From positions 64,075 through 128,074 of the forward strand of contig WRGR01000045.1 of assembly GCA_009787085.1 (NCBI GenBank): a stretch of DNA of 64,000 bases, read 5' to 3'. Under the pieces are notes generated by a model that was not told the origin of the DNA, did not search any database, and saw nothing but the letters and a program-made list of their open reading frames with translations. Of this stretch, positions 12,992 to 45,636 are shown piece after piece. Origin of the DNA: Actinomycetes bacterium. Lineage in GTDB: Bacteria > Actinomycetota > Coriobacteriia > Coriobacteriales > UBA8131. The position numbers were made by a program, and so were the translations under genes. Numbering within the stretch: position 1 is the stretch's first letter; every line of letters starts with the position of its first letter.

Positions 12992-12994
12992 TGC

Positions 12995-13525: not shown

Positions 13526-13534
13526 TATATCCTC

Positions 13535-14440: not shown

Positions 14441-14451
14441 GTGTCAGCCTC

Positions 14452-19057: not shown

Positions 19058-19753
19058 TCAGCTCACTTGCTTCCGACAGTACATCAGGTGGTCAACGAGA
19101 ATACCGCCGGCTACAGCCAAGTCCTCAGCGCTAAAGGCAAATTGTAAACTGGAGTCAAAGAGCAGCACCACCGAAGCCGGGAACTCATCGTCCTCGCGCC
19201 AAAATCGTAGGCTGACCGGTAGTCCATCCAAGAGGTCAAAGCGATAGCCCAAATCACAATTGTCGTCCAAAAGTTCGCCTTGAAAACCGTTGTTGCCCTC
19301 CATAATAGCCCGTAAGCTCTCCAAGTCTTTGGAGAAGCCCTTGATCAAACGACGGCTAACCCGGCCGTTGAAGCACTGTTCATAAGTGTTAGCGCTGGGC
19401 ATATCCCGATAATGCCATTCCTTTCCGGTAGCTGGGGCAAACTGTCCCTCGCAAAGATAGCGGATCACCAAAATACGCTCGTAGTCATTACCGTCAGGAT
19501 GTCCACCGATGCTGGTCATTGTGAAGTCCGGCCAACTAGCCCGATAACCAAACCCGGCCAAGGTAAAGCAAAATTCGCGGCTGTCCGAATCGTAGCGCAA
19601 ATTAGTGCGCTCAGACATAACCAGGGGGTCAAGGCTCTGGTAGATAGGGAGATAGTATTTGAGCGCATTAGTCGTGAGATTCTGCTGCCCCGGAACAAGG
19701 TTGTAGACTCCCTTTGACTCCAAACCGCTAGCGCTGCCATTTGCAACAATCAT
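19058..19753 (-). CDS. DUF3786-like protein (paralogue 2, the most divergent)
   Basis: Shares LPVSLRFWREDDEFPASVVLLFDSSLQFAFSAEDLAV with the other two copies. Confidence 0.65.
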   Translation of the reverse strand: MIVANGSASGLESKGVYNLVPGQQNLTTNALKYYLPIYQSLDPLVMSERTNLRYDSDSREFCFTLAGFGYRASWPDFTMTSIGGHPDGNDYERILVIRYLCEGQFAPATGKEWHYRDMPSANTYEQCFNGRVSRRLIKGFSKDLESLRAIMEGNNGFQGELLDDNCDLGYRFDLLDGLPVSLRFWREDDEFPASVVLLFDSSLQFAFSAEDLAVAGGILVDHLMYCRKQVS

Positions 19754-19818: not shown

Positions 19819-20442
19819 TTACCGCTCAGCCTTCTGTTGTTGGATTATCTCACATAAGCCCCGGCCGAGGCTGGTAGAGAGGAAGGCCAAACACTCGAAG
19901 TCCATGTAAAACGGCGCAGTCTCATCGTACTGCACCTGCACTTCAGCAGGAAATTCTTCATCTGGCTCAAAATATAACAGGCGCATTGGCATTTTCGGGA
20001 AAACAAGAAACTGCCAACTGTGGCCGCTCATCAGCTTGCCCTCATAGGTGCCGCCCATTGCCTCAGCAGCCGCCGCAAACACATCGTATTTGCCCTTTGA
20101 CTCCCGAAGCAGGGCATCACAGATGAACCAGTTCTCATCGTCATGACCTTCCATCACGCCAGACAAGCGCCCGATGGGCACAAAGCTTAGCTTAGGCTCA
20201 ATGCCACCCTCGGAAAGGATGTAGTGGATCACTAAGCTGCGGTCGTTGATGTGTACCGGATCACGCCCGTCGACCTGTTCAACGCCCTGATTGGTTATCA
20301 GATAGCGATGTGTCAAGAAATTTATCGACACACTGCCATCGTCATTGGTGTTCAAGCCAAGGTTTTTAGCATGGCCGACAATGTCGCAAGTAGCGAGCTG
20401 GGGCAAAAGACCAATGTATATTTGCTCATAGCCAGTGGGCAT
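19819..20442 (-). CDS. DUF3786-like protein (paralogue 3)
   Basis: FPKMPMRLLYFEPDEEFPAEVQVQYDETAPFYMDFECLAF. The N-terminus YEQIYIGLLPQLATCDIVGHAKNLGL parallels paralogue 1 (YEKNYESLRSWLADLDVEAVYQRLGL). Confidence 0.7.
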   Translation of the reverse strand: MPTGYEQIYIGLLPQLATCDIVGHAKNLGLNTNDDGSVSINFLTHRYLITNQGVEQVDGRDPVHINDRSLVIHYILSEGGIEPKLSFVPIGRLSGVMEGHDDENWFICDALLRESKGKYDVFAAAAEAMGGTYEGKLMSGHSWQFLVFPKMPMRLLYFEPDEEFPAEVQVQYDETAPFYMDFECLAFLSTSLGRGLCEIIQQQKAER

Positions 20443-20650: not shown

Positions 20651-20934
20651 TTGTAGGCTTGTGCCTTAGCAGCTTTTATCTTCTCTTCTGCGTTCTCCCT
20701 GCTAGCAGTCATCAACCTTTCATACATCTCTTCACCCAAACATTCCTTTGCCATCTTGCACCAGTTAATGCAAGAGATGACATCGTTAAAAACTACGAAC
20801 CCACAACTGGTGCAGGCCAGCTCGATATCGGTAGAAAACAACTGCACTTCCGCACCACACTCCGGGCAGGTCTTGACTTCAAGAGTCGGTGTGCCTGTGA
20901 AGTTGGCGGCTCCTGGACATCCGTTAATAGCCAT
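20647..20934 (-). CDS. Cys-rich small protein with a zinc-ribbon-like core (unknown family)
   Basis: 95 aa with motifs GCPGAANF, CPECG...CTSCG and CINWCKMAKEC. GAGGAAG lies 9 nt upstream of the ATG. Its stop overlaps the ferredoxin start (ATGA). Confidence 0.55.
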   Translation of the reverse strand: MAINGCPGAANFTGTPTLEVKTCPECGAEVQLFSTDIELACTSCGFVVFNDVISCINWCKMAKECLGEEMYERLMTASRENAEEKIKAAKAQAYK

Positions 20935-20989: not shown

Positions 20990-22909
20990 TTATCGTATTG
21001 TCTCAAACAATGAGGCATCAGTATGTGGTAAAAACAACGCAGCGCTATATTGATCCATATAACCCAGTTCAGTGGATAGATCCAAATAGGTCATCCGGTG
21101 GGCAACCTCGAAAAGAAGCTGCCGATGCCGTGCCGAAATCAATGCCATATGAGCACCACTAACCGAAGTGTTGCCAATGAAATGCACTTTGTCATGGATC
21201 AATTTCGGCAACAAACCGATAGCCATGGCATCGTCACTGTCCAGATAGCGGCCAAAACCGCCGGCAATCATCATCCCGGAAAGATCCTCAAATCCCAGCC
21301 CGACGTTTTGCAGAAGTAGATACATGGCAGAGAAAATCGCTGCTTTGGCGCGGATGATGTTTTGGATATCGTTCTCAGAAACCGCCACCCGCATATTCTC
21401 AGCGGGCTCAATTACATAGGTGGCGCTACGGCCATTGATCTCAATGGCCTTGCAAGGACGTTCGCGCTCCAACTGGCCAGCAAAGTCAATCCAGCCGCTA
21501 CGCAGCAGGTTGGCCACCAATGAGATCATGCCAGAGCCGCAGATGCCTTTAGGGGTTTGACCACCGATCACCGAATAAGTAGCCTCACCAGTCTCCGGGT
21601 CCACCGACACCCGCTCGATGGCACCCAAGGATGCTCGCATGCCCTGGTTGATGCCACCGCCCTCAAAAGCCGGTCCGGCCGAACAGGCGCATCCCATCAG
21701 AAAGTCACCATTGCCTAAGACCAGCTCGCCATTGGTACCGATATCCAAGAACAGATAGATATCGTCAGTGTTTTTAGAGAGGTCGGTGCAGAGTAGACCG
21801 GAGATGATGTCGCCACCCAGATAACTGCCTACCGAAGGCACGATCAATATCGGTGCCGCCGGGCAGATGTCAATACCCAAGTCCGCAGCAGTATACAGTG
21901 GCACCTCATAGACTGTTGGCACATAGGGATCGAGGCGAATGTATTCCGGTGGTACCCCCAACAGCAAATGCACCATGGTTGTGTTGGCAGCAACGGTCAT
22001 GTCATAGATACGCGCCGCCTGACCGCCAACTTCCTCCAACAATTCTTGAAGCAAATGATTGATGGTCTTAACAACCTTACTGCGCAGCTCTTCTAGACGA
22101 TCAGGTTTTTGAGCATAGTTGATACGGCTGATCACATCTAGGCCACATGCGATCTGGCCGTTGTAGTCTGTTTTCGATGCCACTATCCGTCCAGAAGTCA
22201 AATCGACCAGCTGTAGAGCCACTGTAGTGGTGCCGATATCCAAGGCAATGCCGAGACGCGCCGGAGCAGAAGCCTCATCAGAGGCTGATTTGGCCGGCAG
22301 CACGTCCACCACCCGAACCAAGGAACCCACAATGTGATAAGCAACTCGCAGTGCCTCATCTTCCCGAATCACTTCCGGAAGATCGCGCAAGAGCGCCAGC
22401 GGCAAATCAACATCCAACGAGCTGCCACTATCTAGGGCAGAGTCCAACGCCCCTCGCAAAGCAATAACAAAGCGGTCGTAGTCCGACCGACCGTCGCCGG
22501 CAACCGGCTGGACGGGCGTGATCTCAATCAAGCCAACCAAGGGCTGCAGATCGTCTTTGCTAGGCAAAAGTGCCGGGTCAACCAACATAATGTCTTCTGA
22601 TTGCTCGGAGAATACGCCTTTTTCGTTCTCTACATTAGAGAGCAAACGAACACGCACTTGCGTTGGATCGCTGAGCAGTGTCTTGCAAGCCAGCGCATAG
22701 CCTTCATCCAACATGTCCTTTTCCAGAAGGGGGTTATCCTCGCGGATAACCCCTCCTGAAAGCACCTGAACGATGCACTTCTTGCATATGCCCTTGCCAC
22801 CGCAAGGTATTTCCACCGCTAATCCTGCTTTGCGCGCCGCATCGAGAATGCTCTCGTTTACTTCGGCTTCAACCGTTACTCCGCTCGGCAAGAATGTAAC
22901 CGATGGCAC
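20990..22909 (-). CDS. acsV: Reductive activator of the corrinoid Fe-S protein (RACo/AcsV-like)
   Basis: N-terminal 2Fe-2S ferredoxin module (VEIPCGGKGICKKC) plus an ASKHA-type ATPase body (LGIALDIGTTTVALQ, FLDIGTNGELV). 639 aa, as in RACo. Confidence 0.85.
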   Translation of the reverse strand: MPSVTFLPSGVTVEAEVNESILDAARKAGLAVEIPCGGKGICKKCIVQVLSGGVIREDNPLLEKDMLDEGYALACKTLLSDPTQVRVRLLSNVENEKGVFSEQSEDIMLVDPALLPSKDDLQPLVGLIEITPVQPVAGDGRSDYDRFVIALRGALDSALDSGSSLDVDLPLALLRDLPEVIREDEALRVAYHIVGSLVRVVDVLPAKSASDEASAPARLGIALDIGTTTVALQLVDLTSGRIVASKTDYNGQIACGLDVISRINYAQKPDRLEELRSKVVKTINHLLQELLEEVGGQAARIYDMTVAANTTMVHLLLGVPPEYIRLDPYVPTVYEVPLYTAADLGIDICPAAPILIVPSVGSYLGGDIISGLLCTDLSKNTDDIYLFLDIGTNGELVLGNGDFLMGCACSAGPAFEGGGINQGMRASLGAIERVSVDPETGEATYSVIGGQTPKGICGSGMISLVANLLRSGWIDFAGQLERERPCKAIEINGRSATYVIEPAENMRVAVSENDIQNIIRAKAAIFSAMYLLLQNVGLGFEDLSGMMIAGGFGRYLDSDDAMAIGLLPKLIHDKVHFIGNTSVSGAHMALISARHRQLLFEVAHRMTYLDLSTELGYMDQYSAALFLPHTDASLFETIR

Positions 22910-24281: not shown

Positions 24282-27200
24282 TTACGCGTTCTGTTGATCG
24301 AGCATTTCGAATATTGCATTCTTGGCAACCTTGGCTGCCTCCGGATGGTACATCACCAAGATGTCGCCACCGGCTTGCAAGAGCGTCATCGCAGTGGTTA
24401 ACTCCCACATCGCAGAGCGCTTCTTGACATCGCCCCAAAGCGGGTAATCCGCCTCGGGAGCTTTGAACTCCTTGCACTTGGCACTCTCAAAGCCAGCCGT
24501 GACGATCATCGGTGCGCAAAGCATCTGGTCACCGCCAAGGCCGGTCAAACGGATACGCTCCATGACCGAATAGGTGTACTCAACACCGTAGCCGATTGAG
24601 CTGGACAGAGGATCCATGATGATCCGGTTCTGAGGCAAGCCCATGTTAGTAAGCAGAATGGCCATCTGCTTGCTGATGTTCACATCGATGGGTGCTTGGG
24701 AGACGAGCGAATGGCCATAAGCCATGGCAGCACCGGCGATGGTACGGTAGTTGTCCTGCTCAACCCAGTTCAACAACAGGTTCTCACCTTCGAAGCTCTG
24801 GGCGATAGCCTTGAACACCTCGTTGTTGGAATCAAAATGGCTGGTTCCAGTAACAATCAGGGGTACATCCACAGCCTTCAGAACCTCACCGACGAGATCC
24901 ACGGACTGCTGCGGGCTGCGGTTGCCTTTCTCAGGATGCGTGGCATCCAAGCGCACGGAGATCATGTCAGCGCCATACTTCTCCACACAGGCAGCAGCCA
25001 TAGCAGCCGGATCATTAACCAAATCTCCGTAAACCTCACGTAGAATCTCCGGGTACTTATCGGAAACCTCGTCGAAGACCTCCATGGCTAGCAGCGGTCG
25101 ATTGGGCATCTTGCCCTCGAAGAGCTGGAAGGGCATGCAGTTGTGGCCACCAACGGTATAGGTCTTGGCACGGGTGCCGCCTTCCTCCTTGGTTGCACCA
25201 AGCTTGACTTCCCAAATCTCATTCTCACAGACCTCTTTGTTCACCGGGAACGATGTGACTTCGGCGATCAGGTCAGCCGCCTTGGGCTGCGCACTGACGG
25301 AAACCGATGCACCAGCAGCAGCTGTACCGCCGGCTTCACCTAGGGACACGGACTTACCCAAGAACTTCTGGGAAAGAACCTCGATGATCGAGGCTACAAC
25401 GTCCTCAGTGACCGACGAGCGCACCTCGGTGGCCATCTGCTCACGCAGGGCCTCCATATCCGCACCGCTGAGCTCAGTTGTAGTGCCAGCGGCAGCGGCG
25501 GCAGTCTCGACCTCGGCAGCCTTCTCAGTCTTGTGCACAGCCGGAGTGTCGTCTTCTTTCTGCATGTACTCGGTCATGTCGTCCATCTCCAGAGCCGGAT
25601 GGTTGACCTTCTCCATAAAGGCACGCAGCTCCTCGGCAGTGGTGGCGATGGTCTCGTCAGCGATCTTGTCGAACATGTCCGCAACACCCTGCTCATCCAA
25701 GCGCTTCTTCATATCCTCGGCGATCGACTCTTTAAGCTCCTTGGGCATCCAAGCCAAGCGACGGAAGCCGCCCTCTGCCGAGCAGAATTTACGAGAGGTC
25801 AAGAAGACCTTGCCGATGCCGACAAAGCCCGGTGTCTGCATACCGCCGCCGACGTTACCGGCCAGTGATGAGAAGGTCATGCCGCAAGGCGTGTCGCCCA
25901 AAAACTCGCGGTTGACAACCATCACGCCGTTGACCTCCGGCACATAAGCCACGATCGCCTCAAAGCAACCGCAACTGGTCATCGGCCGATCCATGATGGA
26001 ATAGGCACAAAACTCCTCGATCGCTTTATGGCTGCTGGTGTAGACAAACTCGTTGATGCCTTCCCAGACGCCTTTGGACTCATCAAGACAAGTACCCTTG
26101 GCGATCGGTTGGTTGGGGCCGGTGGGGTCGATCTCGTGGGCGGCCTTGCCATCCAGCCAGTTATAGGCACCGCAGAGGCCAAGGCGCTCCGGTGTGATAA
26201 CACAAACGTGGTTCGGGGCAAAGCTCTGGCAGAGCAAGCAGGAGTAGAAGATGTCCACAGAGTCGTCAGTCATAGCCTCCAAGCGGCGGTTGCGCTCGTC
26301 ATAGACTTTGCGAGCAACAGCTTGGCGCTTCTCCACTTCCTCGGCATCGGTTACCAAGGTCACCTTGACCTTGTCGACGATGGCCGGGTAGTCGGCCAGC
26401 AGCTTGGCATGCAGGATCTCGCCGTAGTGGCGCATCCGCAAACCCTTGTTGTAGCCGTCCTTGGAAACACGGGTCCAAACGATGTCGCGCTGACCCATGT
26501 GCCAAATGCCCTCAGCACCGTTCACCATGTGGTGCACTTGACGCTCGAGGATCGGCTCGAAATCGACCTGCATCTTGCGACCGGCAGCCTCGACCCAGAT
26601 CGCCAAGGGCAATGCCGTACCCGGCTCGACCTCGTCGATATCCGGGCCGATCAGCTCGATCTCACCGTCCTCGATGTCTTCTGGCTCGACCATGGTGACA
26701 AACTCGAAGGCCGAGGTCTTGTTGCCGCCGAATTCGACCTGGGTGTCTTCCTTGCGGATCCGCTCGCCCTCGAAGGCCGGGCCGTAGGCCACTGGCACAG
26801 GAACGTCAACGATCTTGATCTTGCAGCCTCTGACATCCAGAGCCTTCTCCACGATGGTTTCCAGCGGCACGTTGGCAACAACATGCTCGTAGGTACAAAC
26901 GCCCGTAGGCAGGATCTCCGGAATGTTAGTGTCGGCGATGGTCGGGAAGCCGTAGTTGATGGCACCAGCAGCGGCGGCATATTTGTCCGGCGTAACCTCG
27001 CCCAACGCCAAGACAAAGGCGAAGATGCGGTCCTTGTTGTATTTCAGATGTGCCTCGAAGTCACCGGGTTTGACACCGCCGAAGGACATTGCGGCGCGGC
27101 TGGCGAAGCCGAGTGCGTAGATCAGGGCGGAGACATCGCTGCCGAAGGGCACCAAGCGGGTCTCCCAACCCAGCTGGACACCTTCTTCTTCCAGTTGCTC

Positions 27201-27749
27201 GGCAAACTGCTTGCCGTTGGAAGTGCCGCCCATGAAGACGTAGAGGTTGCGCTGCTGAAGCTCTTTGGCAATGCTCACGGCGGTGGCGTTATCGGCTACC
27301 GAGCCGCAGATGGCAGCAAAGCCAGGGGCTGTGCCGTCCACGAACTCAATGCCGCGCTCGCGCATGATAACATCGGTCGCCGCACCCAGCCAAATGCCGT
27401 CGACCGGCTTGGGGCCGACGAGGTACTTACAGGCCTCGAGTATCTCGCAAGCAAACAGAGCAGCCACGCCGGCATCCAAAGTGTTGCCTAGGTATGGCAG
27501 CCAAACATCGTCGACCGGGCGGGCGGGCAGCAAGTCCCGGGCACCCTTCAAGACTTCTTTGGCATCCTTCAGGGTCTCCACCTTCTTGCCGGTGAAACCA
27601 TAGATTACCGGCAGATAATACGCAGTGTCCGGAAACCCGACGGCGCCGTCCTCGCCAAATTCCTTGATAGCCTCGTCAAGCTTAGCCTCCGCTTTGACGA
27701 CCCATTCCACTGCTCCGTCAATCGCGGATGTTGCTATGATTTTAGACAT
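24282..27749 (-). CDS. Acetyl-CoA synthase (AcsB) fused in frame to the CFeSP small subunit (AcsD)
   Basis: 1155 aa. Residues ~1-735 are AcsB-like (GFPDTAYYLPVIYGFTG; A-cluster cysteines CLLCQSFAPNHVCVITPERLGLCGA and SCGCFE). A ~100 aa Ala/Thr/Glu-rich linker is encoded at about 25225-25555. The C-terminal ~320 aa are AcsD-like (IWEVKLGATKEEGGTRAKTYTVGGHNCMPFQLFEG, YGADMISVRLD, IMDPLSSSIGYGVEYTYSVMERIRL). There is no stop or frameshift between the parts. Confidence 0.9.
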   Translation of the reverse strand: MSKIIATSAIDGAVEWVVKAEAKLDEAIKEFGEDGAVGFPDTAYYLPVIYGFTGKKVETLKDAKEVLKGARDLLPARPVDDVWLPYLGNTLDAGVAALFACEILEACKYLVGPKPVDGIWLGAATDVIMRERGIEFVDGTAPGFAAICGSVADNATAVSIAKELQQRNLYVFMGGTSNGKQFAEQLEEEGVQLGWETRLVPFGSDVSALIYALGFASRAAMSFGGVKPGDFEAHLKYNKDRIFAFVLALGEVTPDKYAAAAGAINYGFPTIADTNIPEILPTGVCTYEHVVANVPLETIVEKALDVRGCKIKIVDVPVPVAYGPAFEGERIRKEDTQVEFGGNKTSAFEFVTMVEPEDIEDGEIELIGPDIDEVEPGTALPLAIWVEAAGRKMQVDFEPILERQVHHMVNGAEGIWHMGQRDIVWTRVSKDGYNKGLRMRHYGEILHAKLLADYPAIVDKVKVTLVTDAEEVEKRQAVARKVYDERNRRLEAMTDDSVDIFYSCLLCQSFAPNHVCVITPERLGLCGAYNWLDGKAAHEIDPTGPNQPIAKGTCLDESKGVWEGINEFVYTSSHKAIEEFCAYSIMDRPMTSCGCFEAIVAYVPEVNGVMVVNREFLGDTPCGMTFSSLAGNVGGGMQTPGFVGIGKVFLTSRKFCSAEGGFRRLAWMPKELKESIAEDMKKRLDEQGVADMFDKIADETIATTAEELRAFMEKVNHPALEMDDMTEYMQKEDDTPAVHKTEKAAEVETAAAAAGTTTELSGADMEALREQMATEVRSSVTEDVVASIIEVLSQKFLGKSVSLGEAGGTAAAGASVSVSAQPKAADLIAEVTSFPVNKEVCENEIWEVKLGATKEEGGTRAKTYTVGGHNCMPFQLFEGKMPNRPLLAMEVFDEVSDKYPEILREVYGDLVNDPAAMAAACVEKYGADMISVRLDATHPEKGNRSPQQSVDLVGEVLKAVDVPLIVTGTSHFDSNNEVFKAIAQSFEGENLLLNWVEQDNYRTIAGAAMAYGHSLVSQAPIDVNISKQMAILLTNMGLPQNRIIMDPLSSSIGYGVEYTYSVMERIRLTGLGGDQMLCAPMIVTAGFESAKCKEFKAPEADYPLWGDVKKRSAMWELTTAMTLLQAGGDILVMYHPEAAKVAKNAIFEMLDQQNA

Positions 27750-27814: not shown

Positions 27815-29800
27815 TTAATGAGCCGAGCGGCGATCAGCCATGTCGAACAGCTTGCGCTCAACCTTCTTGTTGATACCCAGAGCATCCCTAGCCGCGTTCA
27901 GTATCTCGATGATCCGCTCAACAGCCTCCATGGGATCCTCAATCAGATGGAACGATGCACCGAATAGTTCTTTGGTGTCCTCATACAAGAACTTGCTCAC
28001 TTTTTCGGAACCGGACACATAAAACTCGTTGCCCAAGATGACGTCAACACCCGATGCCACACAATAGCAACCGATGGCAATAGCCTTTTCGCTCATCCAT
28101 TCCGGAGCCACGCCAACTGCCGGCAGACCGGCGATATCGTCACCCAAGCCGCCTTCTTTAACAATCTCAGTGGCAGCTTCCAAGATACGGGAGTTGTCCA
28201 CGCAGCTGCCCATATGCAGGATCGGCGGAATGCCGACGGCCTCGCAGACCTCAGCCAAGCCGGCACCGGCATGCTCACGGGCATACTCCGGTGTCATGTA
28301 GCCGGCCTTACCGGCAGCGATAGCCGCACACCCGGTCTCGATAACCAAGACGTTCCGCTTGATCAGCTCTTCGGCCAAAATACCGCTGTAGCTGTCGGCA
28401 CGCTGCTTGGGATTGTTGCAGCCGACGATGCCGACGATGCCCAAGATCCGGTTTTGGATGATGGCGTCGTTCAGCGGCCGGAAGGAGGCACGATACTTAC
28501 CGCCCAGCATGTACTTGATAGCGTCCACCGAGAAACCGGCGATCAGCGGCTCATGCTCGGAGGGTATCTTGACCTTCTCTGGGTCGCGATTCTTGAAGTT
28601 ATCGATCGCCCGCTTGATGATGTTCTTGGCCGACTCGATGGGTGCCTCTTCATCGAAGCCCATGTGGGTGGCACCGGCCATCTTGGCGATCTCCTGGGTG
28701 GAGACGATCTCGGTGTGATAATGTGCAGCCACTTCCGGAAGTGCTGGCATGCAGCACTGGACATCGATGACCATCATCTCCACAGCACCGGTGATGACAG
28801 CCAGTTCCTGCTGCAGGGAGTTGCCGGCGATGACCACGCCCTGACGCATCAAGACCTCGTTGGCCGTGCAGCAAACGCCAGCGATGGTAATGCCCTCGGC
28901 ACCGGCAGCTTTGGCATATTCCGCGATCTCCGGGTCTTTGACGGCGAAGGTCAGCATCTCAGAGAGGGTCGGCTCATGACCGTGAATCAGAATGTTCACG
29001 GTTTCGTTCTTCAGAACGCCCAAGTTGGCCGCTGACTTCAGCGGCGCAGGGGTGCCGAAGAGAATGTCGGAAGTCATGGAAGCAATGCGGGCACCGCCCC
29101 AACCGTCGGCCAGCGAGGTACGGAAGGCATGCATCAAAAGGTTTTTGTAGTCGTGGTCCACGCCCATGGTGGTACGATGCATGGCCTCGACACACATCCG
29201 GTCAACGCCCTTGGGGGCAACGCCGGTCTGCTGCCAAATGCCTTGGCGTTTCTGAGGAGCCAGCGCCAACGTGGCCAAGTAGTCTTCCTGAGACATGAAG
29301 TCATGCAGGAAGATGTCGGTCAGCTCCAAGGCGATCTGAGAGGCCGTCTTGTCCTCGGTCTCAATGCCGTAGAGCTTGGCCACCCGAACCAGCGCCTTCT
29401 CGTCTTTGATGGTGTAGCCATGACCCTCGCCCTTGGCGATCTCCCGAAGCTTCAAAACCAGATGACGGCCATGGTCGGAGTGCGCAGCGGTACCGCCCAC
29501 TACCTCACGCAGGAAGTTGCGTGCGGCAATGGTGTCAGCGGTGGCACCGCAGATGCCCTTCGGAGCCTTAGGGGTGATGCGGCACGGACCCATGTGGCAA
29601 ATGCGGCAACAAACACCGGATTTGCCAAAAGTACACTGGTTCTTCTGGGTTTCCATGCGGTCGAAACAAGTTTCAACACAATCGTCCAAAGCCTTGTTCA
29701 ACATCGCCAAGGACGCATTGTCCACGACTTTGTTTGCGTTCTCAACAATCTTGTCTTTCAGTTCTTGGTCTTTGTCTTTCTTTTCTTTATCTGCTGCCAT
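27815..29800 (-). CDS. acsA: Anaerobic carbon-monoxide dehydrogenase catalytic subunit
   Basis: CRICHMGPCRI, HGHEP, GVCCTANE and GSCVDNSR, the cluster B/C/D ligand motifs of CooS/AcsA. Confidence 0.93.
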   Translation of the reverse strand: MAADKEKKDKDQELKDKIVENANKVVDNASLAMLNKALDDCVETCFDRMETQKNQCTFGKSGVCCRICHMGPCRITPKAPKGICGATADTIAARNFLREVVGGTAAHSDHGRHLVLKLREIAKGEGHGYTIKDEKALVRVAKLYGIETEDKTASQIALELTDIFLHDFMSQEDYLATLALAPQKRQGIWQQTGVAPKGVDRMCVEAMHRTTMGVDHDYKNLLMHAFRTSLADGWGGARIASMTSDILFGTPAPLKSAANLGVLKNETVNILIHGHEPTLSEMLTFAVKDPEIAEYAKAAGAEGITIAGVCCTANEVLMRQGVVIAGNSLQQELAVITGAVEMMVIDVQCCMPALPEVAAHYHTEIVSTQEIAKMAGATHMGFDEEAPIESAKNIIKRAIDNFKNRDPEKVKIPSEHEPLIAGFSVDAIKYMLGGKYRASFRPLNDAIIQNRILGIVGIVGCNNPKQRADSYSGILAEELIKRNVLVIETGCAAIAAGKAGYMTPEYAREHAGAGLAEVCEAVGIPPILHMGSCVDNSRILEAATEIVKEGGLGDDIAGLPAVGVAPEWMSEKAIAIGCYCVASGVDVILGNEFYVSGSEKVSKFLYEDTKELFGASFHLIEDPMEAVERIIEILNAARDALGINKKVERKLFDMADRRSAH

Positions 29801-29916: not shown

Positions 29917-30675
29917 TTAGAAATTTTTGACAATCTCGTCGACTTTCTTAATGACGGCATTGTCTGAAGGAAGCTCCAAGAAAACTCGTGAATCCTCGGC
30001 GAACTTCGCCACTTCCTCATCGTCGGGCAAAAAGTAAATCTCGTCTGCCCCGGTCGCAACACGGACCTCTTCAGCAGCTTTCGGCACCTGGTCGCTACGC
30101 AAGCGGTTGATCACCAAGACCAACTTCTTGTAATTCAGCTTCATCTCATTGGCCAAATCATGCAAACGACCGAGCGTCCTGATACCCGCATTGGATGAGT
30201 CAGAAACCAGCATCAGCACGTCAACATCGGCCACAATGCGGCGAGAGAGGTTCTCTAGCCCGGCCTCATTGTCCAAAACAACATAGGGGTACTCGCCAGA
30301 CAGCTTCTGGATCACGGTTTTCAGCACACCGTTGGCGTAACAATAGCAGCCTGCTCCTTCTGGACGCCCCATCGATATCATGTCGAATCCCTTGGACTCC
30401 ACGAGGCTCTCGTTGATCTTCATTTGCAGCACCTCGGTATTAGAGATGCCGCTGTCTTTGTCCTGAGCGTTGTCCCGGGCTTCTTCACGGGCTGCGCCCA
30501 CGGATTTGGTAACCGTGACCCCCAGCGCCGTGTCTAGACAGCTATTCGGATCGGCATCAATAGCCAACACCGGCTTCTTGCCGGCCTCGATCAGCTGCTT
30601 GACGATCATTGACGAGATGGTTGTCTTGCCAACACCACCCTTTCCGGATATCGCCACAAAAAACGTCATGCGCAA
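29917..30675 (-). CDS. cooC: CooC/AcsF-family Ni-insertion ATPase (copy 2)
   Basis: P-loop SGKGGVGKTT and CxC metal motif GAGCYCYANG. The start may be the Met at 30669. Confidence 0.85.
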   Translation of the reverse strand: MRMTFFVAISGKGGVGKTTISSMIVKQLIEAGKKPVLAIDADPNSCLDTALGVTVTKSVGAAREEARDNAQDKDSGISNTEVLQMKINESLVESKGFDMISMGRPEGAGCYCYANGVLKTVIQKLSGEYPYVVLDNEAGLENLSRRIVADVDVLMLVSDSSNAGIRTLGRLHDLANEMKLNYKKLVLVINRLRSDQVPKAAEEVRVATGADEIYFLPDDEEVAKFAEDSRVFLELPSDNAVIKKVDEIVKNF

Positions 30676-31448
30676 ACCTCCAGTTTATCGAGTATTTCCT
30701 GATAGATAGCCACCAGCTCGGGGCTTGCGGTATCCAGAACCGATACGCCGTCACGATCCGCGGCCCGGATCGTGTCAGAATAGGGAATGATTCCCAGAGG
30801 CTCTGAGGGAAGCTGTTCGCGAACGTAGTCCTCTTCCCCGGCATTAGCTACCTTGTTAGCAACAAACTCCACATGCTGAAGGCCGATCTCTCTGGCCATC
30901 CGGTCTATGGTAATAGCAGCATCGATCGAACGCTGGCCGGGCTCGACGACACAAACCACCACATCCACGCCCTTGACAGTAGAACGCCCCAAATGCTCAA
31001 TGCCTGCTTCCATGTCCATAATCAAAGTCTGGTTTTGGAACAAGACCAAGTCGGTGGTCAAGGATTGTGCGAAGACGTTCTCCGGACACGCGCACCCTGA
31101 CCCACCGGCTTGGATCGCACCAAGCACTAGGAGCGAGATGTTGCCTCTTTTGTACGCGAACTTGTCAGCTACGTCATGCACCTCGGGATTGAGCTTGAAA
31201 ACCTGCCCATACCGGTTCACTTTCGCGCCAGTGCGCTCTTCGATCAGGGCGATCTGTTTGGAGATCGGCACGATCTTGCTTTGCTCGGCATGCGAGATGC
31301 CCAAGGCCTGAGCCAAGTTAGCATCCGGATCAGAGTCAAACGCCAGCACCTCGCCGCCCTCTTTGGAGAGCAGCAAGGCAAGCGCAGCAGCAAGGGTGGA
31401 TTTGCCTACTCCACCCTTACCGGTAACGGCGATTTTCTTTCCCGCCAT
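30666..31448 (-). CDS. cooC: CooC/AcsF-family Ni-insertion ATPase (copy 1)
   Basis: P-loop TGKGGVGKST and CxC motif GGSGCACPEN. Confidence 0.85.
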   Translation of the reverse strand: MAGKKIAVTGKGGVGKSTLAAALALLLSKEGGEVLAFDSDPDANLAQALGISHAEQSKIVPISKQIALIEERTGAKVNRYGQVFKLNPEVHDVADKFAYKRGNISLLVLGAIQAGGSGCACPENVFAQSLTTDLVLFQNQTLIMDMEAGIEHLGRSTVKGVDVVVCVVEPGQRSIDAAITIDRMAREIGLQHVEFVANKVANAGEEDYVREQLPSEPLGIIPYSDTIRAADRDGVSVLDTASPELVAIYQEILDKLEVCA

Positions 31449-31450
31449 TC

Positions 31451-32518
31451 TTAGAAACCGTACTTTTCCCTCATACGGGCACTGAGGGCCTGAAGCAGCT
31501 CGAATACGCGCTCGGCATCGTCGACCGCAATCGAGCCGGTACCGCAGGCCGGTGTGAGGAATGCCTGGTCGAGAATCAGGGATTTCTCGATACCAGCAGT
31601 GCTGGCCAGATGATCCATGACATACTCCAAGCGCTCCTCCAGCGAGTCCACCGTCTCATCACGGATCAACGATGAAGTCGGGCAGATGCCCCAAGCCAAG
31701 GTGCCGCCGCGCTCCAAATGGCGCTTGACATGCTCCGGATACATGGCGATGGTTTCGCCGAACTCAAAGGCATCGAAGTTGACGATATCCACACCAGCAT
31801 CGATCAGGATCGACCACTCGGTGTTGCCACAGCAGTGGATGCCGGCCAAACCACCGTCTTGGTGCACGGCATCGATGGTCTCGATCAGAATATTCACAAC
31901 ATCCTCACGCTGTACGGACACGTAAGTCGACGATCCGAAGGCCGAGAGGATCGGCTCATCGATAAAGCAGACAATGGTATCGGCGTAGGAAGCGAACTTC
32001 TGGATCTGCCAGCGGCATTTCATGGCGATGGCCTTGGTGATCATGTCGCGGAATTCCTCGTTGTAATAAATCGCCCGCTTGTCTTGGTCGACCAGCGTCA
32101 AGGCAATTGAGCAGGGCCCGGTGACCTGGACCTTCAGATAGGGCAGTTTGCCGCCCTTGGCCTTCAGCTGGCGCTCCATCTCGTAGATGCCATGAGAGTA
32201 CTCCTCGCTGATAGCCATAGCCGAACAGTCGCCATTGCCCTCATCAGGGTCCATGGCCATGATATAGGACTCGTAGAAGTTCGCAAACTCCTCCGAATAG
32301 TCACCGTCAGTCTGGAAGAACATCCGGCCCTTCTCGGTGTCCAGCACGGTGCAGGGCATACCCTCGCTGTATTGGATTTCCATCTGTTCTTTCAGCCCGA
32401 AATAACCAAGCTGTGGCCAGATCGGCACATCCAGCCGCTTCAAGGACAGCTCTACTGCGTACTTGGGGTCGTCAAAAGGCATCGAGCCAATTGCTGTTGT
32501 AATACATTGCGGTTTCAT
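31451..32518 (-). CDS. Core-MetE-like (Meth_synt_2 family) Zn methyltransferase
   Basis: 355 aa. TTAIGSMP, VTGPCS, FIDEPIL, the Zn-ligand pattern IHCCGN...VNFDAFE and LTPACGTGS parallel MetE catalytic-domain motifs (TTTIGSFP, GPVT, IDEPA, HMCY...IE, PDCGL). Confidence 0.7.
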   Translation of the reverse strand: MKPQCITTAIGSMPFDDPKYAVELSLKRLDVPIWPQLGYFGLKEQMEIQYSEGMPCTVLDTEKGRMFFQTDGDYSEEFANFYESYIMAMDPDEGNGDCSAMAISEEYSHGIYEMERQLKAKGGKLPYLKVQVTGPCSIALTLVDQDKRAIYYNEEFRDMITKAIAMKCRWQIQKFASYADTIVCFIDEPILSAFGSSTYVSVQREDVVNILIETIDAVHQDGGLAGIHCCGNTEWSILIDAGVDIVNFDAFEFGETIAMYPEHVKRHLERGGTLAWGICPTSSLIRDETVDSLEERLEYVMDHLASTAGIEKSLILDQAFLTPACGTGSIAVDDAERVFELLQALSARMREKYGF

Positions 32519-32571
32519 CAGGTCTCCTTCTCCTCTTCAGAGTGTTTCGTTTTCTTCGAAATCGATGCCGC

Positions 32572-33468
32572 TCAGAGAGCCTTGACAGCCTCTTTGATCG
32601 CCTTGATGTGGGCAGGAGTGGTGCCGCAGCAGCCGCCGATGATGTTGGCACCGGCCTTAACTAGATCGGGCACCAGCTTGGCCATGTCTTCCGGAGTGTC
32701 CGGGAAGGTGTCCTTGCCGTCTACCTGGATCGGCAGGCCAGCGTTGGCGTGCAGCAGGATGAAGGCATTCGGCTCAGCCTTGTGGATCCGCTCCACGATG
32801 GTCAGCATCCGGTCGACACCGTTGCCGCAGTTGGTGCCAACGATATCTGCCCCGGCCTCTAAGGCAGCCTTGGCAGCATCTTCTGGCGTGGTGCCCATCA
32901 TGGTACGATAATCGCCGTTCACCGTCTGCTCAAAGGTAAAGGTGCAGATCACCTCGAGGTTGGTGTTCTCTTTGGTGGCTTTGATGGCCAGTGCAGCCTC
33001 ATCGGTGGCAAACATGGTCTCGATGCAGACTGCATCCGCGCCGCCTTTCTCCAAGGCTATGACCTGTTCTTTATAGGCGTCGTACATTTCCTGCTCGGAC
33101 ACTTCCTCAGTAACCAGCAGCTTGCCGGTGGGGCCGGCAGAGGCGATTACCCAGTTGTCCTCACCAGCAGCGGCACGTGATGCCTTGGCCGCCGCCTCAT
33201 TGATCTCAGCAACTCGACCGGCCAAGCCGTAATGCTCCAGCTTATAGACAGTGCCACCGAAGCTGTCCGCCTCGACCATATCCGCACCTGCATCAATGTA
33301 GCTTTTTGCAATCTTAGTTACCTTGTCGCCGTGATCAACGGCCCAAAGCTCCGGACTCTCGCCTGGCTCCAAGCCCATCTCGATTAGAAAGGTTCCCCAG
33401 GCCCCGTCGGATACAAGAATCCTTCCCGCTTTAAGTGCATCAACGATTTTTCCACGAGTCATGCGCAC
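32572..33468 (-). CDS. Homocysteine S-methyltransferase-domain protein (stand-alone MetH Hcy-module-like)
   Basis: 298 aa with ILVSDGAWGTFL, GTNCGNG and GGCCGTTPAHI, the Zn-Cys3 pattern of the S-methyl_trans domain. It is the first gene of the acs operon. Confidence 0.8.
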   Translation of the reverse strand: MRMTRGKIVDALKAGRILVSDGAWGTFLIEMGLEPGESPELWAVDHGDKVTKIAKSYIDAGADMVEADSFGGTVYKLEHYGLAGRVAEINEAAAKASRAAAGEDNWVIASAGPTGKLLVTEEVSEQEMYDAYKEQVIALEKGGADAVCIETMFATDEAALAIKATKENTNLEVICTFTFEQTVNGDYRTMMGTTPEDAAKAALEAGADIVGTNCGNGVDRMLTIVERIHKAEPNAFILLHANAGLPIQVDGKDTFPDTPEDMAKLVPDLVKAGANIIGGCCGTTPAHIKAIKEAVKAL

Positions 33469-33669: not shown

Positions 33670-34773
33670 CTAAAGCTTTTTCCCTTCGTAGTAAGTGCAG
33701 TTCCGGCCACCCTCTTTCTTGGCACAATACATCTGTTGATCAGCCTCGTCAACCAGTTCTGCCAATTTTCCAGATATCGATGATTTCTTAAATATTATGC
33801 CTTGACTGACAGTTCTAGGAAATACTATACTTGCACTATTATACTTTTTTACTAGTTCACCCCATCCCGTATGCTCGGCTAGCTGGCTTTTGAACCGCTG
33901 GGAATATTCTATCACCTCACCTTCTGAACAGCCGTAGAGGCAGACCACGAACTCCTCCCCCCCCCATCTGGAGACAAGTATCCTACCCTTGCAGTCGGCC
34001 ATCGCACTTCTTGCCATTATCAGGGATTCTCCGTAGATTTTGAGCACATTGTCACCCTCGTCATGACCGCATACGTCATTGACTTCCTTGAACTTGTCAG
34101 CATCTGCCATGATGATCCCCAAGCTTTGCGACGACTGCTCGGCCTTTTTGTAGTCCCAGATCTTCTCTAAAGCAAAGCGATTGTATAAATCTTCAAGCAT
34201 TATTGCCTGAAAAAGGCGGTTATATAATCTGAGATTATCAATTATGGTATTGACGTTCATGTAACTGAAGAGGTATGGCATACCCTTGAAATCCAGAAGT
34301 CGGGGGACAAACAGCTCGGCCGGCTCAACCGAAAGTTCGTGCCTCAGCAACTTTGTAGCCTCTGGATTACAGACTCGAATATACATATACATAAATATCC
34401 AGATGAGTTTCTCGGCCTCTGGGTAATAGGTATCGTGATCCTCGCATTCCGCAGCAGAGGGAAACCTCTCAATGAGCATCGCTCGAACATAGGCTACGAG
34501 TATCCGCGTCAACGGAAACTCGTGGAACCTATAAGCCGCAAAGGCACCGTTTTCCTCCAAGGCTATCGCATGGATTCTCTCAAACGCTGCTGCAACTAGC
34601 CCGTCGTCCAACCCGTCTTTGTTGCACGCGAAGACCTTGCCATAAAGCTGACAAGCGCTTTGAAAAATCCTATACGTCTGCTGTTTGACGACTTCGTCGC
34701 TAAGAGCACTGTCCAATGTGCCTCCATATCGTTGAGGGAATAATTGCTCGACCTTCTGGACGATTAACCGCAA
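33670..34773 (-). CDS. Diguanylate cyclase (GGDEF) with an uncharacterised N-terminal domain
   Basis: RWGGEEFVV active-site motif in the C-terminal ~170 aa. No RxxD I-site is seen 5 aa upstream. The N-terminal ~190 aa are unassigned. Confidence 0.85.
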   Translation of the reverse strand: MRLIVQKVEQLFPQRYGGTLDSALSDEVVKQQTYRIFQSACQLYGKVFACNKDGLDDGLVAAAFERIHAIALEENGAFAAYRFHEFPLTRILVAYVRAMLIERFPSAAECEDHDTYYPEAEKLIWIFMYMYIRVCNPEATKLLRHELSVEPAELFVPRLLDFKGMPYLFSYMNVNTIIDNLRLYNRLFQAIMLEDLYNRFALEKIWDYKKAEQSSQSLGIIMADADKFKEVNDVCGHDEGDNVLKIYGESLIMARSAMADCKGRILVSRWGGEEFVVCLYGCSEGEVIEYSQRFKSQLAEHTGWGELVKKYNSASIVFPRTVSQGIIFKKSSISGKLAELVDEADQQMYCAKKEGGRNCTYYEGKKL

Positions 34774-43017: not shown

Positions 43018-45585
43018 TTAGCCCTCAGCCTGCAGGCCGTCACCGGAGCCGGAGGCCGAGCCAGAGCCGACTCCAGAGAAGATCGGGGTGATTAGCTCCT
43101 GCTCGCGCTGGATGCTGGTGCGCTGACGCGGTCGGGGAATCTCGCCGGCATGGCCATCGAAGACAATGCCGCTGCCGTCATAGTCCACATCGATGATCGT
43201 TCCCGGCTGCCATCTGCCCTCTAAGACCTGCTCTGAGATGGGGTCTTCGACCAAACGCTGGATAGCACGGCGTAACGGCCGGGCACCGAAGGTGGAATCC
43301 GTCCCCTCATCAGCAATGTAGGTGCGAGCAGCCTCGGAAAGCTCGATGCTCATCCCCTGCCCGATCAACCGGTCACGGAGATCAGAAACCATCAGCTCGA
43401 CGATGGCGGCGATCTGCTCTCTGTTCAGCGACTTGAAGACGATGATCTCGTCGATACGGTTCAAGAACTCCGGACGGAAGAGCTTCTTCATCTCGCTCAT
43501 CACTCGGCTGTTGATCTCGCGGTCGGAAAGGCCGCTCTTGCCGTCACCGGAGCCAAAGCCGATCGGGGTGTCTTTAGCGATCTCCCGTGCCCCAACATTG
43601 GAGGTCATGATGATCACAGTGTTGCGGAAATCAACCTTGCGCCCTTGGCCGTCGGTCAGGCGCCCCTCCTCCAGAATCTGCAATAGGATGTTGAAGACGT
43701 CCGGGTGGGCCTTCTCGATCTCGTCGAAGAGGATCACCGAGTACGGCCGTTGGCGCACCGCCTTGGTCAGCTGTCCGCCCTCATCGTAGCCGACATAGCC
43801 GGGAGGCGAGCCCACCAAGCGGGAGACAGTGTGCTTCTCCATATATTCACTCATGTCGAAGGAGAGCAGGGCATCCTCGGAGTTGAAGAGGAACTCGGCC
43901 AAGGCCTTGGAAAGCTCGGTCTTGCCAACGCCTGATGGGCCCAGGAAGATGAAGGAACCAGCCGGGCGCTTGGGGTCTTTGAGGCCGGCACGGGAACGGC
44001 GGATGGCCTTGGACACCGCGCACACCGCCTCTTCTTGGCCGATGATCCGCTCGTGCAGCACGTTTTCCATGCGCAGCAGCTTCTCGGTCTCGGCCTCTGT
44101 CAGGTCAGCGACCGGCACGCCGGTAGTCATGGAGACGATATCGGCGATCTCCCGCCCAGTCACCGCGACCACTTCCTTGACGCTGTCCTCGCGCCATTTC
44201 TCCTCCAAGGCGCGGCGCTGGTTCATCAACTGGCGCTCCTCGTCGCGGAGCTTGGCCGCAGTCTCGAATTCTTGGGTGGCTATGGCCTCGTCCTTCTCGG
44301 CACGGACTTTGCGGATCTCCTCGTCCATGCTGTGGACATCGGCCGGAATGGTCATGTTGCGGATGCGCATCCGGGCTCCGGCCTCGTCGATAACATCAAT
44401 GGCCTTATCCGGCAAGAAGCGGTCTTGGACATAGCGGTCGGCCAGGCTCACTGCCGCCTGCAGTGCCTCGTCCGTGAAGCGCACCCGGTGGTGCGCCTCA
44501 TAGCGGTCGCGCAGCCCGGTCAGGATCCGTACCGCCTGCTCTTGGCTCGGCTCGTTGATCATCACGGTCTGGAAACGTCGCTCCAAGGCAGCGTCCTTCT
44601 CAATATGCTTGCGATACTCTTCAGAAGTGGCAGCGCCGATCACTTGGATCTCACCACGGGAAAGCGGCGGCTTGAGAATGGCTGCGGCGTCGATGGAGCC
44701 CTCGGCCGAGCCGGCACCGATGATGGTGTGCATCTCGTCGATGAACAAGATGATGTCATCGCGCTCCTTGGCCTCTTTGACCACGCGCTTCATGCGGTCC
44801 TCGAACTCGCCGCGGTACTTGCTGCCGGCCACTAGGGCCGAAACATCCAAAGTGATCAGCTGTTTATGGCGGAGGATGTCCGGCACCTGCTCGCTGGCAA
44901 TCAGCTGCGCCAAGCCTTCGGCGATAGCCGTCTTGCCAACGCCCGGATCGCCGAGCAAAAGCGGGTTGTTCTTGGAACGGCGCGAGAGTATCTGCATCAC
45001 CCGCTCGATCTCCGCCTCCCGGCCGACCACCGGGTCGAGCTTGTTTTGCTTGGCCTGTTCAGTGAGGTTGGTACCGAAGTCATCTAGGAAGCTCTCGCCT
45101 TCCTGAAAATCCTCTTCATCGCGGGCCTGAGGGCCAGCGAAAGCCGATGATTTGTGGAGGATCTCGATCACTGCACCCCTGACCCTTGCAGCATCAATGC
45201 CCAGTTGGGACAAAGCTTGGACGGCAATGCCGTTGCCCTCGCGCATCATGCCTAACAACAGGTGCTCGGTGGAGATATAGTTCTGTCCCAACTGCATCGT
45301 CTCACGCAAGGCATACTCCATCACCCTCTTGACCCGCGGCGTGAAGCTGAGGTGGCCACTGGGGGCCTCTGAGCCTTCTTCGGTCAAATTGGTGACTTGC
45401 GCCAAGATGTCGTCATAGCCGACGTTCAAGGACTCCAAAGCCTGCGCGGCGATGCCGTCCTTCTCCCTCAGTAGCCCGAGCAACAGATGCTCGGTGCCTA
45501 CAAAAGACTGTTTGAGGTTGCGGGCCTCATCTTGTGCCATGGCCAGCACGTTACGAGCTTTATCGGTAAACCTATCAAATGACAT
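43018..45585 (-). CDS. clpC: ATP-dependent Clp protease ATP-binding subunit ClpC
   Basis: Clp_N repeats (FTDKARNVLAMAQDEARNL) and two AAA+ P-loops (GDPGVGKTAI, GPSGVGKTEL). The ATG at 45585 (MSFDRFTDKA) lies after AAGGGAG. Confidence 0.92.
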   Translation of the reverse strand: MSFDRFTDKARNVLAMAQDEARNLKQSFVGTEHLLLGLLREKDGIAAQALESLNVGYDDILAQVTNLTEEGSEAPSGHLSFTPRVKRVMEYALRETMQLGQNYISTEHLLLGMMREGNGIAVQALSQLGIDAARVRGAVIEILHKSSAFAGPQARDEEDFQEGESFLDDFGTNLTEQAKQNKLDPVVGREAEIERVMQILSRRSKNNPLLLGDPGVGKTAIAEGLAQLIASEQVPDILRHKQLITLDVSALVAGSKYRGEFEDRMKRVVKEAKERDDIILFIDEMHTIIGAGSAEGSIDAAAILKPPLSRGEIQVIGAATSEEYRKHIEKDAALERRFQTVMINEPSQEQAVRILTGLRDRYEAHHRVRFTDEALQAAVSLADRYVQDRFLPDKAIDVIDEAGARMRIRNMTIPADVHSMDEEIRKVRAEKDEAIATQEFETAAKLRDEERQLMNQRRALEEKWREDSVKEVVAVTGREIADIVSMTTGVPVADLTEAETEKLLRMENVLHERIIGQEEAVCAVSKAIRRSRAGLKDPKRPAGSFIFLGPSGVGKTELSKALAEFLFNSEDALLSFDMSEYMEKHTVSRLVGSPPGYVGYDEGGQLTKAVRQRPYSVILFDEIEKAHPDVFNILLQILEEGRLTDGQGRKVDFRNTVIIMTSNVGAREIAKDTPIGFGSGDGKSGLSDREINSRVMSEMKKLFRPEFLNRIDEIIVFKSLNREQIAAIVELMVSDLRDRLIGQGMSIELSEAARTYIADEGTDSTFGARPLRRAIQRLVEDPISEQVLEGRWQPGTIIDVDYDGSGIVFDGHAGEIPRPRQRTSIQREQELITPIFSGVGSGSASGSGDGLQAEG

Positions 45586-45636
45586 TTCCGGCTCCCTTGA
45601 CATGCTCCTGGCAATACAGCCCGGAGCGGCTTATGC

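Follow-up and report, generated by a model that had tools for sequence, protein, structure and literature searches.

A CODH/ACS operon without AcsE, led by two homocysteine-type zinc methyltransferase genes, in a Coriobacteriia genome

How a corrinoid protein obtains or gives up its methyl groups when its usual methyltransferase is absent is a real and testable question, and it is raised by a 64,000-nucleotide stretch of DNA from an Actinomycetes bacterium of the class Coriobacteriia (GCA_009787085.1, contig WRGR01000045.1, positions 64,075 to 128,074 of the forward strand; hereafter the window). On its minus strand the window carries an acs operon for CO dehydrogenase (CODH), for acetyl-CoA synthase (ACS) and for the corrinoid iron-sulfur protein (CFeSP, also written CoFeSP). 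The operon opens with two genes for zinc methyltransferase barrels and has no acsE, the gene for the enzyme that exchanges methyl groups between methyl-tetrahydrofolate (methyl-THF) and CFeSP. Its eight genes are one case of a conserved module that matches published descriptions of CODH/ACS genomes without acsE. The reading that we favour, at a probability slightly under one half (about 0.48), is that the operon is a self-contained AcsE-less CODH/ACS-CFeSP module in which both leading enzymes methylate homocysteine from CH3-Co(III)-CFeSP.

Two zinc methyltransferase barrels at the head of the operon

The two leading genes, in the order in which they are read, are:

32572..33468, minus strand: gene 1, a stand-alone MetH-type homocysteine-binding zinc methyltransferase barrel (PF02574)
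31451..32518, minus strand: gene 2, a predicted MesB/core-MetE-like zinc methyltransferase of 355 amino acids (from fold, residues and a weak match to NF002119)

Gene 1 encodes 298 amino acids from a GTG start (296 in the NCBI call) and matches PF02574 over the entire profile (positions 1 to 283 of 283; 227.7 bits, cut-off 22; E = 3.4e-67), with no other domain. The protein aligns along the whole homocysteine barrel of Thermotoga maritima MetH (PDB 1q7m, residues 6-285); it retains the DGAxGT motif, the NC(G/S) cysteine and GGCCGTTP, and the three zinc ligands of the T. maritima enzyme align with cysteines in TNCGNG and GGCCGTTP. Its top NCBIfam matches are YitJ-type homocysteine methyltransferase/MTHFR fusions (in their N-terminal half), bacterial BHMT and MetH. 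Against the MetH model TIGR02082 it reaches 165 bits, where the cut-off is 1011, and covers the homocysteine domain only, so it is not a full MetH. Stand-alone homologues of approximately 295 amino acids and 70% identity are numerous across phyla, some of them named 'methionine synthase' by NCBI. At the level of sequence, gene 1 is confirmed as a zinc thiol (homocysteine-type) methyltransferase barrel. The first-pass annotation of this locus had already described it as resembling the MetH homocysteine domain, and translation bears out the coordinates and motifs that it gave and its placing of two homocysteine-type genes at the head of the acs operon.

The same annotation called the protein of gene 2 core-MetE-like, a description upheld by the fold, by the zinc and homocysteine residues and by NF002119, but not by the expected family profile. 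Gene 2 has no Pfam match even at E ≤ 1, and the gathering threshold of PF01717 (21 bits) is not reached; the single NCBIfam match, to the archaeal core methionine synthase model NF002119, scores 29.6 bits (E = 3.6e-7) against a cut-off of 258. Searches of PDB sequences with gene 2 as a single sequence and as a narrow profile gave no match, and a broad profile of 95 family sequences returned only spurious matches to designer PPR repeats. A relative that is 38% identical to gene 2 (P0138) passes PF01717 at 23.1 bits; its own search of PDB sequences found no MetE-like match. The AlphaFold2 model of gene 2 (pLDDT 89) is a single TIM-like barrel, for which Foldseek returned URO-D and T. maritima MetE as the best PDB folds (E ~1e-7), with TM scores of 0.56-0.59 for MetE.

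The predicted catalytic residues are well preserved. G11-S12-x-P14, D187-E188-P189, H228-x-C230, D249 and C325 are conserved among 140 full-length representatives of the wider family, at identities as low as 31%. All four putative zinc ligands, H228, C230, D249 and C325, occur without exception in 25 close homologues and are kept in no fewer than 137 of the 140 representatives, and their His/Cys/Asp/Cys spacing of 2/19/76 is that of MesB positions 214/216/235/311 (PMC7857596). S12 and D187, found in 131 and 137 of the 140 representatives, correspond to the homocysteine contacts of MesB, and their conservation argues that homocysteine or methionine is still the ligand.

The minimum phmmer score that Price et al. 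set for MesB, measured against DET0516, is 130 bits in their main text and 173 bits in their methods. An exact-position search with the published MesB residue numbers found no retrieved protein numbered identically to DET0516, and membership was judged by proxy: with 120 members of the Dehalococcoidia clade standing in for DET0516, some of them named 'methionine synthase' by NCBI, gene 2 reaches 176-238 bits and so would probably qualify. The protein is within the MesB limit of 386 amino acids and has no folate-binding N-terminal MetE domain, and the AcsC and AcsD that accompany MesB in a genome are here encoded in the same operon. In a neighbour-joining tree, gene 2 and its close relatives form a clade of their own, 35-40% identical to every other subclade; the nearest relatives are from Coriobacteriia, and the cluster names of distant relatives were uninformative. 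Sequence and model together support gene 2 as a putative MesB-family (core-MetE-like) zinc enzyme of a distinct subfamily embedded in acs clusters.

An AcsE-less module and its distribution

The run of minus-strand genes from 33468 to 20990 comprises the two methyltransferase genes followed by:

30666..31448, minus strand: CooC-type nickel-insertion ATPase 1 (PF01656 (CbiA) and other P-loop families)
29917..30675, minus strand: CooC-type ATPase 2 (Pfam annotation)
27815..29800, minus strand: Ni-CODH, AcsA/CooS (PF03063, E = 2e-166)
24282..27749, minus strand: AcsB of the three-domain bacterial type with the CFeSP small subunit AcsD/CdhD at its C-terminus, 1155 amino acids
22940..24328, minus strand: CFeSP large subunit AcsC, with corrinoid and [4Fe-4S] (PF03599 and PF04060; NF003195, 500.8 bits)
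20990..22909, minus strand: RACo, ATP-dependent reductive activator of the corrinoid (PF14574, PF17651, PF00111)

Genes 1 and 2 are 53 nt apart, and the stop codon of gene 2 is followed with zero gap by the start codon of the first CooC gene; the eight genes are an apparent single transcription unit. A weak sigma-70-like promoter (33724..33752, minus strand; 9/12 matches, a consensus match only) lies upstream of gene 1, and a terminator-like hairpin after RACo (20798..20818, minus strand; likewise a consensus match only) probably marks the end of the operon. In the ACS::AcsD protein, PF18537, PF03598 and PF19436 extend over residues 21-725 and PF03599 over residues 848-1084, with scores of 1058 bits to NF040764 and 368 bits to NF003376. 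The two parts are joined by a linker of approximately 110 residues, and the fusion is kept in most related loci from many phyla. The tethering of CFeSP to ACS noted in the first-pass annotation is therefore a fusion of its small subunit. The longest AcsC open reading frame (ORF), from a TTG start, runs 47 nt into the end of the ACS::AcsD gene (24282-27749); the real AcsC start codon is probably further downstream.

AcsE was sought with the Moorella thermoacetica enzyme MeTr (100% identical to PDB 2e7f), a query that detects MetH folate domains at E values of 1e-14 to 1e-25. With phmmer --max against six-frame ORFs of the window and the first 80 related loci, no AcsE was found (best E = 0.34). 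Eighty-six further loci also held no AcsE, the sole MeTr match there being the AcsC barrel at E = 0.002, which brings the search to the window plus 166 related loci (~2.4 Mb). Outside the operon, the window's main non-overlapping ORFs were annotated with Pfam, and none encodes a pterin-binding protein, MetF, Fhs, FolD, MetH or MetE. The canonical AcsABCDE set is therefore incomplete: AcsA, AcsB, AcsC and an AcsD domain are present, and AcsE is absent from operon and window, in agreement with the first reading of this DNA.

Similar gaps have been reported. In human-gut Oscillospirales, acsE is missing from 78% of genomes with CODH/ACS, while fhs, folD and metF are kept and transcribed (PMC11338639, the supplements of which hold no KEGG orthology numbers for metH, metE or acsE), and metagenome-assembled genomes (MAGs) from the millipede gut also lack acsE (PMC10823672); neither paper offered an explanation. 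Treponema primitia, a proven acetogen, was considered as a carrier of this cluster type and rejected: its acs cluster contains acsE (PMC5039349), so it provides no physiological anchor.

A scan of species-representative genomes with the gene 2 family gave at least 587 confirmed matches; the locus counts that follow come from the best 80, using loci with enough flanking DNA. Among these 80, the module is present in more than 15 bacterial phyla. The lineages include Victivallales/Lentisphaeria; Clostridia (Oscillospiraceae, Christensenellaceae, Saccharofermentanales); Bacteroidales/Cytophagia/Prolixibacteraceae; Treponema and other Spirochaetota, and Leptospirales; Planctomycetota/Phycisphaerae; Verrucomicrobiota; Acidobacteriota; Fibrobacterota; Ignavibacteriae; Syntrophales and other Desulfobacterota; Aminicenantes; Latescibacterota; Sumerlaeota; and Zhuqueibacterota. 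A CooC gene adjoins the 355-amino-acid gene in 73/77 loci, CODH lies downstream of it in 55/60 and ACS, fused to AcsD in most cases, in 46/48; the PF02574 gene stands just upstream in 35/66 genome loci. In some lineages the 355-amino-acid gene is found between the two cooC genes. The pairing of these genes with acs genes, which the first-pass annotation had left to be established beyond a single genome, thus extends over many phyla. The 355-amino-acid protein is 60-72% identical across phyla, with similar values for CODH and ACS, and the evenness of these identities suggests that the module spreads by horizontal transfer.

The converse search, from ACS::AcsD in metagenomes, recovered, where upstream sequence sufficed, the 355-amino-acid gene in 30/35 loci and the PF02574 gene in 22/31. 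In the five loci without the 355-amino-acid gene, the genes upstream of CODH are unrelated (ABC transporter, leucine-rich-repeat proteins, cellulase), which identifies these exceptions as split clusters and not as carriers of an alternative methyltransferase.

Of 124 flanking ORFs, 5 encode CobW-type metallochaperones and 4 encode formate-THF ligase, the two commonest families. In three loci of Desulfobacterota type (L049, 709-2391; L065, 8092-9774; L073, 8031-9713) the MesB-like gene has the ligase directly upstream, and in one from Bacillota (L014, 6185-7867) the ligase is two genes upstream; this adjacency connects the AcsE-less module with the folate methyl branch. In five Clostridia loci (L004, L009, L016, L018 and L020, 7701-8741 in the last) the metallochaperone, a GTPase of CobW/HypB/UreG type, is encoded upstream of the PF02574 gene and may serve zinc or nickel insertion. 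Elsewhere, a CooF-like ferredoxin and/or an FAD/NAD(P) oxidoreductase is inserted between cooC and CODH (L041, 3400-4950; L056, 12706-14459; L060, 12873-14638), the L041 insert being the oxidoreductase only and that of L060 consisting of unannotated ORFs.

More distant members of the family have other neighbours, and three of them stand alone. In one locus (L082, 8001-10261; also L083), a MesB-like gene of 40% identity overlaps the start of a 399-amino-acid gene with the B12-binding and activation (Met_synt_B12) parts of MetH, with no pterin-binding or PF02574 module nearby. From its sequence this pair may be a two-gene methionine synthase, and the coupling to a MetH B12-binding/activation protein indicates that the family works with corrinoid proteins. 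In another (L084, 876-9044), the acs genes are unfused (acsB-acsC-RACo-cooC-acsD) and acsD is overlapped at its end by a MesB-like gene of 36% identity; the ~8 kb to either side contain no AcsE. In canonical clusters, acsE lies directly after acsD.

Around the operon in the window itself, the following neighbours were annotated:

19058-19753 and 19819-20442, minus strand: two DUF3786 genes downstream of RACo (PF12654)
10005-10790, plus strand: a third DUF3786 paralogue
17884-19008: a PucR-type regulator, between the DUF3786 genes and the hydrogenase operon
11469-16464, minus strand: an Ech/complex-I-like membrane hydrogenase set, with NuoD/NiFe large, 30-kDa, 20-kDa, NuoH-like and NuoL-like subunits
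8960-9511, minus strand: folK (HPPK)
802-3450, minus strand: the large subunit of a ribonucleotide reductase, with a TSCPD domain
43018-45603 and 58901-61738, minus strand: a pair of paralogous AAA+ chaperones of ClpC/ClpB type within 16 kb, with dnaJ and grpE beside the second

The three DUF3786 copies flank the acs and hydrogenase operons. DUF3786 also adjoins the cluster in five related loci (e.g. L016, L024, L025, L040, L043) and is possibly associated with it; our literature search found nothing useful on its function. The Ech-like hydrogenase is a plausible ferredoxin/H2 partner for CODH. Upstream of the operon are a gene for a GGDEF protein and then housekeeping genes. From folK it can be presumed that the host makes folate, and together with the ribonucleotide reductase, which we take to be of the B12-dependent class II, this gene suggests that the organism uses cobamides and synthesizes folate.

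Methyl transfer to and from the corrinoid protein

On the reading that we favour, the 355- and 298-amino-acid proteins would each bind homocysteine as a zinc thiolate and accept the methyl group of CH3-Co(III)-CFeSP; methionine and Co(I)-CFeSP would result. Cobalt oxidised to Co(II) would be repaired by RACo, in the role that the activation domain plays in MetH. CFeSP would in turn be methylated by ACS through the cleavage of acetyl-CoA, with CODH oxidising the CO, or by another CFeSP loader. The operon would then represent a CFeSP-centred methionine synthase grafted onto CODH/ACS. We infer these substrates, this direction of flux and CFeSP as the physical partner from the zinc barrels, their sharing of an operon with CFeSP and the pairing across phyla, which make methyl transfer from CFeSP to homocysteine the most direct reading.

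It is favoured also because the MesB of Dehalococcoides mccartyi uses methylcobalamin and because MesB co-occurs with AcsC and AcsD. According to Deobald et al. (2020, PMC7005905), the D. mccartyi core-MetE (cbdbA481/DET0516) methylates homocysteine from methylcobalamin and not from methyl-THF, and direct methyl transfer from AcsCD to core-MetE was proposed there. Price et al. (2021, PMC7857596) found MesB only in proteomes with AcsC and/or AcsD (both in 120/123), described mesB-acsC-acsD operons in some methanogens (their Fig 3B) and predicted CoFeSP as the methyl donor, with the caution that more distant MesB-like proteins may have other functions. Our literature search found no later paper on MesB. 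The route that the first-pass annotation put forward is thus the best supported by families, linkage and conservation, but its core idea had already been published as a prediction for MesB/core-MetE (PMC7857596 and PMC7005905). What appears to be new is the architecture and reach of a mobile AcsE-less module consisting of an optional MetH-type barrel, the MesB-like protein, two CooC proteins, CODH, ACS::AcsD, AcsC and RACo.

Several observations weigh against this reading. It is hard to explain why two apparently isofunctional enzymes should be kept in about half to two thirds of clusters (35/66 and 22/31), and the presence of two such homocysteine methyltransferases in one operon hints that one of them does something else. 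A large Ni/Co/Fe-S module maintained in more than 15 phyla would seem to exceed the need for methionine supply alone. The MesB-like gene is retained approximately as strictly as AcsE is in canonical clusters, and in the unfused cluster its relative comes directly after acsD. The four loci with an adjoining formate-THF ligase, and the acsE-less gut Oscillospirales that keep and transcribe fhs, folD and metF (PMC11338639), imply traffic between methyl-THF and CFeSP that would be left without a catalyst. Gene 2 itself belongs to a subfamily that, by sequence, is only ~36% identical to the characterised clade. The paired isofunctional enzymes, the strict retention of the MesB-like gene with its acsD-adjacent relative, and the links to the folate branch hold our confidence to about one half. 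The folate-linked observations, with folK in the window, do not bear out the folate-bypassing variant of the pathway that the first-pass annotation envisaged.

The main rival is that the MesB-like protein substitutes for AcsE, either loading methyl groups from methyl-THF onto CFeSP (or unloading them) on a MetE-type barrel or acting bifunctionally, from methyl-THF to cobalt and from cobalt to homocysteine; we regard this as unlikely on balance, though deserving serious weight. The MetH-type barrel would then be the sole methionine-synthase half-reaction of the module, which would resemble a MetH in pieces with CFeSP and RACo, its corrinoid shared with ACS, and would form a complete folate-dependent Wood-Ljungdahl carbonyl/methyl junction. 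The two genes would have separate jobs, which explains why the MesB-like gene is near-universal and the MetH-type barrel optional (35/66). The MesB-like gene is nearly always there in loci from which AcsE is absent, its L084 relative occupies the place of acsE after an unfused acsD, and formate-THF ligase is directly upstream in three loci and nearby in a fourth. Full-length MetE does hold the methyl-THF pterin on its catalytic barrel (MetE structures such as 1xpg, which is in the Foldseek list). It also fits that acsE is missing from 78% of gut Oscillospirales genomes with CODH/ACS that keep fhs, folD and metF (PMC11338639) and from millipede-gut MAGs (PMC10823672). Against such a function stands the strict conservation of the zinc ligands and of the Ser and Asp that contact homocysteine, none of which a folate:Co(I) methyltransferase would need; MeTr and the MetH folate domain are metal-free. 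The characterised MesB does not use methyl-THF for homocysteine methylation, with no transfer to Co(I) reported in the text available (PMC7005905), and genomes with canonical AcsE also carry MesB (PMC7857596). The absence of AcsE is, moreover, a property of loci, established for the window and 166 others, rather than of whole genomes.

Less likely still is that CFeSP loads itself, AcsC/AcsD exchanging methyl groups with the pterin unaided and the zinc enzymes serving as methionine synthases on a side branch. Archaeal CoFeSP does transfer methyl groups from pterin to cobalt without a separate methyltransferase (PMC13370988), and in its ACS-AcsD fusion the operon is similar to the tethered supercomplex of archaea. 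The AcsD part falls short of the acetogen-type model WLP_AcsD (243 bits, cut-off 430) and passes the generic delta-subunit model (368 bits, cut-off 280); that model, of 313 positions, may however be bacterial, for which reason self-loading stays no more than a rival. The ACS here is of the three-domain bacterial type, pterin-binding residues in the AcsD/AcsC barrel are without support, and neither the strict retention of the MesB-like gene nor the presence of two homocysteine enzymes would be explained. Flow in the opposite sense, with one zinc enzyme taking a methyl group from a methylated thiol or a sulfonium compound (methanethiol, dimethyl sulfide, S-methylmethionine, dimethylsulfoniopropionate or methionine) and handing it to Co(I)-CFeSP for acetyl-CoA synthesis, in a folate-independent methylotrophic acetogenesis, seems improbable. 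The MtsA zinc methyltransferases of methanogens run both ways with methyl thioethers, relatives in PF02574 use S-methylmethionine or betaine as donors (judging from NCBIfam names), and gut and sediment communities that degrade plant matter often carry the module. Transfer from a thioether to Co(I) is thermodynamically unfavourable, however, the 298-amino-acid protein is nearest to the MetH/YitJ type (E = 4e-74) and not the S-methylmethionine type (E = 3e-27), and genes to transport or break down such substrates are not conserved beside the cluster. The reverse flow from a methyl-thiol donor raised in the first-pass annotation thus found no specific support.

The choice between methionine supply and replacement of AcsE bears on how genomes are read, as acsE is usually required in genome surveys before an organism is called an acetogen (e.g. 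PMC12449052). If the module only feeds methionine, it would be the clearest genomic evidence yet for the predicted CoFeSP-to-homocysteine route, which would be far commoner than Dehalococcoides and sulfate reducers suggest. If the MesB-like protein replaces AcsE, corrinoid methyltransferases with folate (or another donor) would gain a new class; the many gut and sediment MAGs labelled 'incomplete Wood-Ljungdahl pathway, acsE missing' would be able to make acetyl-CoA, and estimates of acetogenic and CO2-fixing capacity in guts and sediments would need revision.

Comparison with known systems

The closest counterpart of gene 2 is the MesB of D. mccartyi (~345 amino acids), which shares with it the single MetE-like barrel without a folate-binding N-terminal domain, the zinc ligand spacing (2, 19, 76), the Ser and Asp contacts, the association with CFeSP in an AcsE-less context and methyl-CoFeSP as the proposed donor. 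The two differ in that gene 2 is only ~36% identical and falls in a separate clade, and in that it stands in a CODH/ACS operon, between or beside cooC genes, whereas the D. mccartyi gene is part of an S-adenosylmethionine (SAM)-cycle operon. The present system also has a CODH and a second, MetH-type homocysteine barrel, and it recurs in more than 15 phyla. The mesB-acsC-acsD operons of methanogens likewise place a MesB-family gene with CFeSP genes; here the host is bacterial, the operon is a full CODH/ACS operon with maturases, the MesB subclade is another one and there is an extra PF02574 gene.

Gene 1 resembles MetH as a homocysteine barrel with a Cys3 zinc site, and the module follows the same logic of homocysteine module, corrinoid protein and dedicated reactivator. 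Price et al. are said to have described, in 2018, some split MetH systems with a RACo/RamA-like activator. Split MetH is mentioned only in passing in PMC7857596. In contrast to MetH, the module has no pterin-binding PF00809 part; the corrinoid carrier would be CFeSP, shared with ACS, instead of a B12 domain of its own, and reactivation would be by ATP-dependent RACo instead of SAM and flavodoxin.

With the canonical acsA-B-C-D-E clusters of Moorella and Carboxydothermus the operon has in common CODH, three-domain ACS, AcsC, an AcsD domain, CooC and RACo, all with strong scores; it departs from them in the absence of AcsE, the fusion of AcsD to the ACS C-terminus and the two zinc thiol methyltransferase genes in first position. 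Like the archaeal acetyl-CoA decarbonylase/synthase complex (CdhABCDE), it has no separate AcsE-type methyltransferase and tethers ACS to the CFeSP small subunit, but its ACS is bacterial, with an N-terminal domain, no CdhB homologue was noted among the annotated genes, and its pterin carrier is presumably THF.

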